From assembly GCA_026996985.1 (NCBI GenBank), contig JALWJR010000028.1, positions 1 through 20,202 on the forward strand: 20,202 bases of DNA, given 5' to 3'. The notes below the pieces were generated by a model. The model had not been told where the DNA came from and made no database searches. It was given only the letters and a program-made list of their open reading frames with translations. Shown piece by piece: positions 4,161-19,032 of this stretch. The translations under genes were made by a program, and so were the position numbers. The stretch comes from Candidatus Kaiserbacteria bacterium. Its GTDB lineage: Bacteria; Patescibacteriota; Minisyncoccia; Phycocordibacterales; UBA2100. The number at the start of each line of letters is the position of its first letter. Position 1 is the first letter of the stretch.

Positions 4161-4229
4161 CCCAGCACCAAATTGGTGCCGGACATGTGCCGCAACAGGC
4201 TATAGGTGCGTGTAGATTTACGAATCGTT
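4161..4229 (+). repeat. 69-nt spacer with palindrome gcaccaaattggtgc and motif cggacatg; weak similarity to the Z modules
   Basis: Shares gcacca, cggacatg and ccgca with 11014..11083. Assignment to the Z family is tentative. Confidence 0.35.
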
Positions 4230-4307: not shown

Positions 4308-4584
4308 CACGGAACAAAGTGGAGTGGCCGAACACAGCAGAGCAAACCAAGCCGTTATTGTAACTAACAGCTTGGCAAGTTGCTTTGCTTCTATTTTGGT
4401 GAGAAAGTTTACCCAGCCCATTTTTCACTGCCGGCTCTATTACCACGAAAGAGAAATTGCGCTCAATTACTAAACAGGTGCAACAGAGAGTATATTTAAA
4501 AGTGGTGGGGGCTGGTAGGCAACAAACAATACAATGGTTCGCACTCATTCAATTCAGTGAAGAGTGGGACAGAGTGAATTTATG

Positions 4585-16686: not shown

Positions 16687-16947
16687 ATGTTTAGTTATGT
16701 TTATATTTTGCAATCTAAGAAAGATGGTTCCACATACACAGGAAGTACAACAGATTTGAAAAGAAGAATAAAAGAGCATAATGATGGTAAAGTAAAATCT
16801 ACGAGATCAAAACGTCCTTGGAAGTTAGTGTATTATGAAGCTTATCTTTTAGAAGATACTGCCAGAAAACGTGAAAAATCAATAAAAACACATGGTAATA
16901 TAAAGAGGCAATTATTTGATAGAATCTTTAAAAATTTATCTTCATAA
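16687..16947 (+). CDS. small stand-alone GIY-YIG nuclease-domain protein (YhbQ/UPF0213-like)
   Basis: YVYILQS...YTGSTTDLKRRIKEHN...WKLVYYE...AR.RE..IK matches the GIY-YIG core. Confidence 0.8.
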   Translation: MFSYVYILQSKKDGSTYTGSTTDLKRRIKEHNDGKVKSTRSKRPWKLVYYEAYLLEDTARKREKSIKTHGNIKRQLFDRIFKNLSS

Positions 16948-17138: not shown

Positions 17139-17765
17139 ATGCAAGTTTTCCAGTTTGTCGCCGGCGAGCTGACTCTCGGTATTGATACTGACTCCTTCTC
17201 AGAAGGAAGGAGGGTGGTATTGGGTAGAAAGAAAGTGGTGGGGGTACTGAATGGCAACCCGCCACTTTTCGGCCCCGATGGGAAAATCCTTTGTGCATTT
17301 CCCATCAAGGATAAAGAATCGGGAAATCCGATGCTCGCTTACCCCAACAAGGCGAGTAAGCATACGGGTTACCTTGTCCGCGTTTTTACCGGCATGCGCG
17401 CGTATCCTGACGCGCACGGCCGTGTGTGGTTTGTCAAGAATGAAAAAAGGAGTCGCATTCTTCTCTCTGCAAAAGACACAAGAAGTATGCAGAGAAAGGA
17501 TGGGTCTCCTGCAGAAACCTCCCACACCGACTCCCTCGTACTTCTCTGGGAAGGAGATTTACTCGGGATTGTACTGCAAAACAAAGGCAATCCCAAGTAT
17601 GTGATTGTGGCTCAGGAAGACCGGCTTGACTGTCTACTCTATGACGAGTGGGTCAAGCAGGCTGAGCAAGAGGGAGTGGAGTTCACCTCTTTTGAGGATT
17701 GGGAACGGCACCGGATTGAACAGTCTGTTGCCGGGCTAAAGAAAACCCTCAAGGTGGTGAAGTGA
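17139..17765 (+). CDS. hypothetical protein (GC-rich orphan, no recognisable domain)
   Basis: 208-aa ORF with SD aaaggaga 6-7 nt upstream and its own strong terminator. Visibly GC-richer than its flanks. Confidence 0.6.
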   Translation: MQVFQFVAGELTLGIDTDSFSEGRRVVLGRKKVVGVLNGNPPLFGPDGKILCAFPIKDKESGNPMLAYPNKASKHTGYLVRVFTGMRAYPDAHGRVWFVKNEKRSRILLSAKDTRSMQRKDGSPAETSHTDSLVLLWEGDLLGIVLQNKGNPKYVIVAQEDRLDCLLYDEWVKQAEQEGVEFTSFEDWERHRIEQSVAGLKKTLKVVK

Positions 17766-18392: not shown

Positions 18393-18421
18393 TGTACAAA
18401 GTGCATTTTTTGTTTTATAAT
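18393..18421 (+). promoter_or_regulatory. putative rnpB promoter (tgtaca, 17-nt spacer, tataat)
   Basis: The -10 hexamer at 18416..18421 lies about 7 nt before the P1 5' strand. Confidence 0.35.
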
Positions 18422-18444
18422 CCTACCGGTCGCATCGGATGGTC

Positions 18445-18547
18445 GCCCCCCACCACTTTTGTGCTTTAAACCTGTGGCGGTAAATAGTAAAGTGTTGACA
18501 AGCCAAATTGCAAATTAATGGTTTACGGTACAAAAGTGGTGGGGGGA
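18445..18547 (+). repeat. 103-nt extended hairpin at the P3 position (17-bp base ccccccaccacttttgt/acaaaagtggtgggggg)
   Basis: Identical to 18563..18666 except for one extra C in the second copy. Confidence 0.9.
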
Positions 18548-18562
18548 GGAAAGTCCGGACAC

Positions 18563-18666
18563 GCCCCCCCACCACTTTTGTGCTTTAAACCTGTGGCGGT
18601 AAATAGTAAAGTGTTGACAAGCCAAATTGCAAATTAATGGTTTACGGTACAAAAGTGGTGGGGGGA
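18563..18666 (+). repeat. second copy of the 103/104-nt hairpin, inserted just after the P4 5' strand
   Basis: Direct comparison with 18445..18547. Confidence 0.9.
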
Positions 18667-18958
18667 GAAAGGTAGCGGGTAACACCCGTCCGGGGCAACC
18701 CGAGAGGTGCGAACAGAGACGCTGAAAGTGGAAACACTTTCAGGGCCCTTTTGGGGTTAGCTCTTAGGGAAACCTAAGAGGTGAAACGGCTAAATCCTTA
18801 CCTGCGTGCAAGGCCGTGCCGAGCCCATACATTTAGTATAAGCTCGGAGAGCCGCAAGAGGCGACTGGTAACAGTCGTCCCAGATAAATGACCATCGCTG
18901 AGTCTTTTGGCGCAAAGATTCGGTACAGAATCCGGCTTATAGATGCGATCTGCCAGAT

Positions 18959-19032
18959 GGCGGCTGTAGCTCAGTTGGTAGAGCCCTCGGTTGTGGTCCG
19001 AGTGGTCGTGGGTTCGAGTCCCACCAGTCGCC
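18959..19032 (+). tRNA. tRNA-His (anticodon GTG) with encoded G-1
   Basis: G-1 opposite C73. Acceptor GCGGCTG/CAGTCGC, anticodon stem CTCGG/CCGAG, loop TTGTGGT, T arm GTGGG TTCGAGT CCCAC. Confidence 0.9.

Follow-up and report, generated by a model that had tools for sequence, protein, structure and literature searches.

Identical twin hairpins in the RNase P RNA gene of a Candidatus Kaiserbacteria bacterium and their resemblance to a dispersed palindromic family

The rnpB locus and its repeated hairpin

The window analyzed in this work (the whole stretch of 20,202 nucleotides of contig JALWJR010000028.1, assembly GCA_026996985.1) belongs to a Candidatus Kaiserbacteria genome, labelled here G000 (other G-numbers denote comparison genomes), whose assembly is a fragmented MAG of 614 kb in 90 contigs with a completeness of 84%. 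It carries a class-A-derived RNase P RNA gene (rnpB) of 529 nt (18427..18955, + strand), which matched the Rfam model RF00010 over model positions 1-367 with a score of 90.2 bits (E = 4.8e-28). As this score lies below the gathering score of 100 bits, the gene is missed by the default Rfam scan and is not listed at the gathering threshold. The score is low because the model mispairs arm 1 of the first of two hairpin copies (described below) with arm 2 of the second and deletes P4; the orthologues of two congeners scored 133 and 119 bits. With a permissive Rfam threshold, microRNA models also matched the hairpin, and these were rejected as spurious matches to a long stem.

The class A landmarks, i.e., the P4 strands GGAAAGUCCGG and ACAGAAnCCGGCUUA as well as the closing P1 and P2 pairings, are present, in agreement with the initial annotation, which had recognized the conserved rnpB blocks, and the 3' two-thirds of the gene align closely with rnpB of G005 and G002. 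The fact that this is the single rnpB match found in the genome implies, as judged from sequence, that the gene is probably functional. A sigma-70-like promoter (TGTACA, 17-nt spacer, TATAAT; 10 of 12 matches) was predicted at 18393..18421 (+), and it ends 6 nt 5' of the RNA start given by Rfam. On the other side, a tRNA-His gene with the anticodon GTG (RF00005, 66.2 bits) was found at 18960..19032 (+). The end of rnpB (18955) is placed 4 nt before the genome-encoded G-1 (18959) of this tRNA; if both genes were co-transcribed, cleavage of the tRNA leader by RNase P would help to set the 3' end of its own RNA.

The RNA opens (18428..18444, +) with the 5' strands of P1 (18428-18436) and P2 (18437-18444), which are complementary to 18942-18950 (P1 3' strand) and 18890-18896 (P2 3' strand), respectively. 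The whole helix P3 is formed by the first copy of a long hairpin, 101 nt in size (18446..18546, +), with the exact repeat block reaching 18548. It is separated from the second copy by an 18-nt spacer (18547..18564, +), which comprises J3/4, the P4 5' strand AGGAAAGTCCGGA (18547-18559) and the P5 5' strand CACGC (18560-18564), a block that is kept in all relatives. The second copy (18565..18665, +; exact block to 18667) makes up a whole helix between P5 and P7, and it is followed by the P7 5' strand (AGGTA, 18670-18674), P8 (GCGGGTAACACCCGT) and P9 hairpins (18670..18704, +). Further downstream, a hairpin at the P16 position (18819..18847, +) carries a CCGAGC/GCTCGG stem similar to the basal part of the terminus common to the hairpin family presented below; the P16 hairpin of G220 is a full short-form element of that family. 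The P19-like hairpin GAGTCTTT/AAAGATTC (18900..18921, +) lies between the P2 3' and P4 3' strands, at a position that holds family elements in G033, G285, G292, G180, and G220. The P4 3' strand ACAGAATCCGGCTTA (18925-18939) and the P1 3' strand complete the molecule (18925..18950, +).

An exact-match scan revealed 103 nt of 100% identity between 18446-18548 and 18565-18667, and the repeat search delimited a direct repeat, 18446-18554 / 18565-18673, with a period of 119. An exact repeat of 103 nt cannot be attributed to chance. A perfect basal stem of 20 bp (CCCCCCACCACTTTTGTGCT/GGTACAAAAGTGGTGGGGGG) is present in each copy, which ends in the termini CCCCCCACCACTTTT/AAAAGTGGTGGGGG and folds with -52.8 kcal/mol (z = -7.6), while none of 200 shuffled sequences folded as well. 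The exact match and the strong fold of each copy confirm the initial report of a long hairpin present twice within rnpB, and the "one extra C" noted at that time as the sole difference between the copies is explained by the base preceding each of them (G18445 versus C18564). Tandem duplication of the 119-nt unit was considered and rejected, since copy 2 is followed by the conserved J/P7/P8 block and no second spacer, and since the helix that it occupies pre-exists in relatives.

Helix positions and twin hairpins in related rnpB genes

The comparison set consisted of 131 rnpB genes from the same order as G000; three members of its genus (G001, G003, and G004) have no assembled rnpB. A match above the Rfam cut-off was obtained in only 78 of 151 genomes. 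Full-length matches in the order measure between 274 and 586 nt, and therefore the 529-nt rnpB of G000 is not extreme: the length of about 520 nt given in the initial annotation was right, but its being unusual was not upheld. A hairpin between P5 and P7 is found in 120 of the 125 analysable genes of the order, with a median size of 22 nt, the same as that of P3. Copy 2 thus resides in a pre-existing helix position and was not wedged into a new place, as had been assumed at first. Published tables give the helix P5.1 for type B RNase P RNA only (PMC2858038), and for this reason the helix is called P5.1-like in this work. Almost all of the 131 class-A-like rnpB genes have such a P5.1-like hairpin, and many have a P19-like one.

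Copy 1 does form P3, as proposed from the outset, a helix that measures about 22 nt in relatives. In 29 of 29 close relatives, the P4 strand GGAAAGTC is located 31-49 nt from the 5' end, which means that P3 is short in all of them. A comparison with rnpB of close relatives had been suggested in the initial annotation; in G002 and G005, which are congeners of G000, the P3 and the P5.1-like site are each occupied by a short hairpin, and the long form is absent.

Twin hairpins are not limited to G000. Applying a strict definition (two non-overlapping hairpins with a common perfect 9-nt arm), we found twins in 6 of the 131 rnpB genes versus none in 20 dinucleotide-shuffled sets. In G273, which belongs to another family than G000 and is assembled into three contigs including one of 675 kb, a 59-nt hairpin, unrelated in sequence to that of G000, occupies both P3 and P5.1; its copies are identical at 58 of 59 positions, and the single difference creates an uncompensated C-A mismatch. 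Other site pairs or sets sharing a hairpin are P5.1, P16, and P19-like (G220), P5.1 and P19-like (G033), P9 and P19-like (G285), and a P12-region helix together with P19-like (G292 and G180). The congener G002 has four hairpins with GCCACAC/GTGTGGC stems, and these (nt 18-46, 60-92, 165-200, and 240-292 of its rnpB) correspond to P3, the P5.1-like helix, a P12/13-region helix, and P16. A repeated hairpin was also observed in rnpB of G245, where the match starts with a hairpin of some 34 nt (nt 1-34) that recurs at nt 375-408 with exact repeats of 18 and 15 nt and termini differing from those of the family described in the next section.

Within a genome, the P3 and P5.1-like hairpins resemble each other more than they resemble those of other genomes (permutation p < 5e-5; 118 genomes, without G000). 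The value remained at p < 5e-5 when G273 was also removed, and it was p = 0.0045 when the five strongest cases were additionally excluded. The similarity of the two hairpins forms a continuum, from identical (G000), through one mismatch (G273) and partly alike (G014, G171, G002, G008, and G031), to dissimilar, which across the order is consistent with episodic copying followed by neutral decay.

These observations bear on the explanation that the twin is an assembly artefact, i.e., a repeat-induced misjoin or a chimeric path composed of two strains, each with one of the hairpin sites. The fragmented and incomplete state of the MAG speaks for it, as does the fact that exact 103-nt repeats can confuse short-k assemblers, and no independent assembly containing the hairpin 29-mer was found in the collections searched. 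It should be stressed, however, that the 18-nt spacer is the universally required P4/P5 5' strand, so that a molecule with a single copy would be devoid of it, and that the contig contains all four junctions between repeat and flank, each of them distinct, making flank-hairpin-spacer-hairpin-flank the simplest path. Moreover, the well-assembled G273 has its own P3 and P5.1 twin, built of an unrelated element and differing by one mismatch, and twins recur in at least 6 of 131 rnpB genes. We therefore regard an artefact as very unlikely; its two-strain variant is possible, with a probability that we consider slight.

A dispersed palindromic family and its nuclease link

Many rnpB hairpins of the order have termini close to CCGAGCACCA(CTTTT)...(AAAAG)TGGTGCTCGG, e.g., the stem of G033 rnpB, CCCAGCACCACTTTTGT, matches that of G000, CCCCCCACCACTTTTGT, at 15 of 17 positions. 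A search with the pattern CCNAGCACC-N(3-100)-GGTGCTNGG gave 14, 6, 4, and 3 sites in G220, G292, G033, and G273, respectively, and the reversed-pattern control for CCNAGCACC...GGTGCTNGG gave none. Across the order, variants of the termini CCGAGCACCA... cap helices of 16S rRNA, 23S rRNA, rnpB, a group I intron, and terminator-like hairpins. In G220, the host is the 5' hairpin of 16S rRNA, which, from its sequence, we read as helix 6 (V1), and one and the same 23S rRNA site, just 5' of the conserved GGCCGTAACTATAACGG block, is occupied in G220 and G292, representing two families. Short forms of 23-24 nt are situated on the tips of bidirectional terminator-like hairpins, other copies are intergenic, and the long forms of 94-106 nt have the size of the G000 hairpin.

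A BLAST search of the G000 hairpin against 150 genomes of its family gave only matches with E >= 0.01 and no copy of the hairpin; among them, the 16-nt terminal matches in G089 and G101 are true family termini. The exact G000-type termini (CCCCCCACCACTTT...) are present in these two genomes of another genus of the same family, where they delimit elements of 39, 43, and 45 nt (short forms) and of about 110 nt (long form), of which the 39-, 45-, and about 110-nt ones belong to G089. The interior of the hairpin has no match elsewhere, either in that BLAST search or in a 29-mer search, in which an exact interior 29-mer was absent from the genome and metagenome contig collections searched.

No full-length copies other than the two in rnpB were found within G000, and the remaining members are diverged. 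One of these is located between tRNA genes (C15:2987-3068) and one inside a group I intron (C75:1206-1262). In the window, a solo terminus AAAAGTGGTGGGGG at 4498..4511 (+) reproduces the 3' terminus of the rnpB hairpin exactly, and the 10-mer CACCACTTTT occurs 11 times in G000 versus about 1.4 expected. The search for more copies in the genome, proposed initially, thus yielded diverged members and solo termini and no further full-length copy, although "no other copy in the genome" is a weak statement for an assembly in which the rRNA genes are missing. The group I intron mentioned above (C75:928-1343; RF00028, 72.6 bits) contains a perfect 57-nt palindrome with a 25-bp stem and the termini TCCAACACCACTTTTAAA..., and no rRNA or tRNA host was detected around this intron.

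Several further observations concern sequences similar to the termini. Terminus-like motifs in the opposite, tail-to-tail arrangement (GAAAGTGGTGGGGG ... AACCCGCCACTTTT) are present at 17231..17269 (+); these motifs (GAAAGTGGTGGGGG ... CCCGCCACTTTT) apparently fall within coding sequence, and a similar arrangement is found at C1:6763-6888 of G000. A degenerate short-form palindrome, CCCAGCACCAAATTGGTGCCGG, lies at 4161-4182, in a spacer that belongs to a duplicated 5' segment of tRNA-Lys. Many of the copies outside rRNA are nested within a further palindrome, at a distance of about 10-20 nt from the termini (AAGGAGnnnAGCGACTAT(G)A ... T(C)ATAGTCGCTnnnCTCCTT), as is the case for the loci L153 (2360-2453), L154, L155, and L160 of G220, L167 of G273, L193, L195, and L196 of G089, and L197 of G101. 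This outer palindrome has no Rfam match; a further repeat unit and a small structured RNA are both conceivable. Mimicry of a tRNA 3' end (GCACCA) by the terminus was also considered; in rnpB, this motif is part of the 5' arm, and the variants of G000 and G002 are without it. A role of the termini as a DNA-uptake sequence was rejected, as there are only about 3-15 sites per genome, and so was a shared protein-binding site or K-turn-like motif, as the stems are perfect duplexes and their sequence differs between lineages.

Signs of mobility were found in two congeneric genomes. G180, a congener of G292, contains at least 15 dispersed copies of a 102-nt form with 72-94% identity, and one orthologous locus is occupied in G292 (TGTCAA, the element, and then TCAAATTTCG) and empty in G180 (TGTCAA directly followed by CAAATTTCG). 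TCAA is present on both sides of three G292 copies, and the empty site (TGTCAA joined to CAAATTT) lacks a clean 4-bp duplication. No target-site duplication was detected at the rnpB sites of G000.

The termini were also found in association with a nuclease gene. In G273, an 82-aa GIY-YIG ORF is enclosed in a 298-nt element with the termini CCGAGCACCTTT/AAAGGTGCTCGG, the first 17 nt of which are the first 17 nt of the G273 rnpB hairpin. This element is located at a 23S hairpin apex (positions ~573-599 of the Rfam LSU model, directly 3' of ACAAGnAGU), which we take to be helix 25 on the E. coli map, the classical IVS site. In G033, a GIY-YIG gene in the 5' region of the 16S rRNA gene is bracketed by ATGCCACACCTC repeats resembling the rnpB stems of G002; the GCCACAC/GTGTGGC motif itself recurs there. 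The window contains a small GIY-YIG nuclease gene too (86 aa; 16687..16947, +; PF01541, 65 bits), 1.5 kb 5' of rnpB, whose product shares 41% identity (E = 4e-22) with the 23S-borne GIY-YIG protein of G273. The family termini do not bound this gene, and no autonomous element with G000-type termini was found. A transposase partner carrying the family termini was likewise not found, the GIY-YIG of G273 being the only gene detected between termini, and there is no PF01797 (Y1 transposase) match in G000. Genes of Y1 transposases (IS200/IS605- or RAYT-like) exist in G220 (C5:75748-76110, C7:32263-32604, and C8:10541-10795) and in G180 (C32:11342-11596), where the inverted repeats on either side of them bear no relation to the hairpin family; a RAYT (REP/REPIN) or IS200-605 route is not supported.

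It may be argued that no mobile element is involved at all, and that P3 and P5.1-like helices specific to each lineage owe their likeness to gene conversion over short distances, or to template switching, between adjacent quasi-palindromes, their termini reflecting common ancestry. The within-genome likeness of these helices is indeed general, being significant even without the five strongest cases; no target duplication accompanies the elements, which make up helices in full, and just 18 nt lie between the two sites. On the other hand, the same termini recur at non-homologous places (16S and 23S rRNA, a group I intron, intergenic regions, and terminator tips), so that their confinement to rnpB is already contradicted. 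Furthermore, the family is multi-copy with an empty site in G180, its termini bracket a nuclease gene in G273, and the long form is absent in the congeners of G000. Taken together, we consider an origin without an element unlikely.

Proposed origin, consequences for the RNA, and known systems

The twin blocks are probably a palindromic helix-cap element (IVS- or MITE-like) without an ORF, which was recently copied and now serves as P3 and as the P5.1-like helix. The copying should be recent, because there are no differences over 103 nt, whereas the other members in the genome are diverged. A recent duplication, or insertion of a mobile hairpin, had already been put forward in the initial annotation, and it gains support from the occurrence of the termini in a dispersed family, from the copy-number expansion and the empty site in the congeners G180 and G292, and from the 0/103 differences. 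We infer that one rnpB copy was very recently copied onto the other site, the copies being 119 nt apart, and that this could have proceeded by nuclease- or break-triggered repair or conversion templated by the neighbouring copy, or by local re-insertion. The elements make up complete helices, and no trace of an earlier stem is seen, which fits conversion or replacement better than simple loop insertion. Extension of P3 and the P5.1-like helix would be tolerated because the corresponding hairpins of relatives (~22 nt) project from the ribozyme core.

During transcription, both hairpins would fold locally. A strand-swapped fold, which joins the 3' arm of copy 1 to the 5' arm of copy 2 and confines the P4 strand to an 18-nt loop, was predicted at -128.1 kcal/mol versus -129.1 kcal/mol for the native one, and co-transcriptional folding should favour the local hairpins over it. 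The misfold is nearly equal in energy because the copies are identical, and on this modelling the twin arrangement may be mildly harmful rather than neutral. The energy difference of about 1 kcal/mol could alternatively be seen as a sign of a function for which the twin was selected, either as a switch hiding P4 or through the binding of one factor by both hairpins, and the recurrence of twins in the order would agree with that. Nevertheless, twins are sporadic (most relatives, including congeners, have dissimilar short hairpins), the pairs of sites vary (P3 and P5.1, P5.1 and P19, P9 and P19, or P12 and P19), and the uncompensated C-A mismatch of G273 is what neutral decay would leave, so that selection for function is, in our opinion, the least probable of the explanations considered.

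Assuming the copied helix-cap element, the hairpins would either persist as long extensions or be trimmed by RNase III in the manner of rRNA IVSs, whose flanks stay unligated after excision. An RNase III gene is encoded in G000, and the perfect 20-bp stems look like substrates of this enzyme as far as their sequence allows one to judge. By analogy with rRNA, it is conceivable, but rather doubtful, that RNase III excises both hairpins to give a three-piece RNase P RNA and that a single GIY-YIG-linked copy-and-paste family remodels all stable RNAs of these bacteria. If excision did take place, the P4/P5 5' strand would reside on a separate RNA of about 40-60 nt, held by base pairing only, and the twin-hairpin rnpB may serve as a natural test case for ribozyme fragmentation.

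RNase P RNA is a universal and essential ribozyme, whose helices are usually thought to evolve slowly. If the twin blocks are indeed copies of a mobile element, the peripheral helices of CPR rnpB turn over by means of the same palindromic elements that occupy rRNA insertion sites, and selfish inserts of the type known from rRNA are tolerated in this essential RNA as well. Such turnover would account for the failure of standard covariance models to detect many CPR rnpB genes, for the two-fold range in their lengths, and for the sequence that separate helices of one RNA can share. In addition, the short ORF-less insertions in rRNA, long unexplained, would be connected with a definable family that has conserved termini and a candidate nuclease. 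For annotation, masking of the hairpin elements should rescue rnpB detection in CPR genomes.

In the literature searched, we found no paper on a palindromic family with conserved termini common to rnpB, rRNA, and other loci, and none on twin copies in rnpB, although several known systems are comparable in part. The palindromic elements of Rickettsia and the Correia elements of Neisseria are palindromic MITEs landing in genes and transcripts; they are hairpin-forming, about 100 nt long, with inverted termini, multi-copy, polymorphic in presence, and tolerated inside essential genes. The family described here shares with them the conserved terminal inverted repeats, the dispersed copies, and (at one locus) an empty site. 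It differs in that neither a transposase partner nor a clear target duplication was found, only GIY-YIG between termini, and in that its interiors are hypervariable between genomes. Another similar case is that of the STRR repeats of cyanobacterial rnpB, which are reportedly heptamers located in P12. Vioque (1997, cited in PMC2858038) reported STRRs within the rnpB genes of heterocystous cyanobacteria. They resemble the present case as genome-wide repeats in a peripheral helix of a functional rnpB, but they are tandem short repeats, whereas here single palindromic elements with inverted termini replace P3 and the P5.1-like helix.

As to the helix positions, P5.1 of type B RNase P RNA, which makes the L5.1-L15.1 contact (PMC5066622, PMC2858038), is also a hairpin between P5 and P7, but the present RNAs resemble class A in other respects and match its model. 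RNase P RNAs of CPR bacteria with scores below Rfam thresholds and "large extensions of helices" have been reported (Lui et al. 2021, PMC8172020), and G000 rnpB is alike in both its low score and its extended helices; in that work, however, the extensions were neither ascribed to a repeat family nor tied to rRNA insertions.

The closest parallel is found in rRNA. Insertions in CPR rRNA are abundant, and among them are presumed IVSs, which are short, lack an ORF, and lie at the tips of stem-loops, as well as non-intron insertions encoding GIY-YIG (Tsurumaki et al. 2024, PMC11270868). The terms "RNase P", "palindrom", and "inverted repeat" do not occur in that paper, and, unlike for the family presented here, no conserved termini linking different sites and genes are described in it. 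The present case differs from rRNA IVSs in that the host is rnpB and that two identical copies are present in one gene. With the 23S IVSs (helices 25 and 45) and the CPR rRNA insertions it shares complementary ends that prolong a helix tip of an essential RNA and a sporadic distribution among close relatives, and members of the family themselves reside in both 23S and 16S rRNA.
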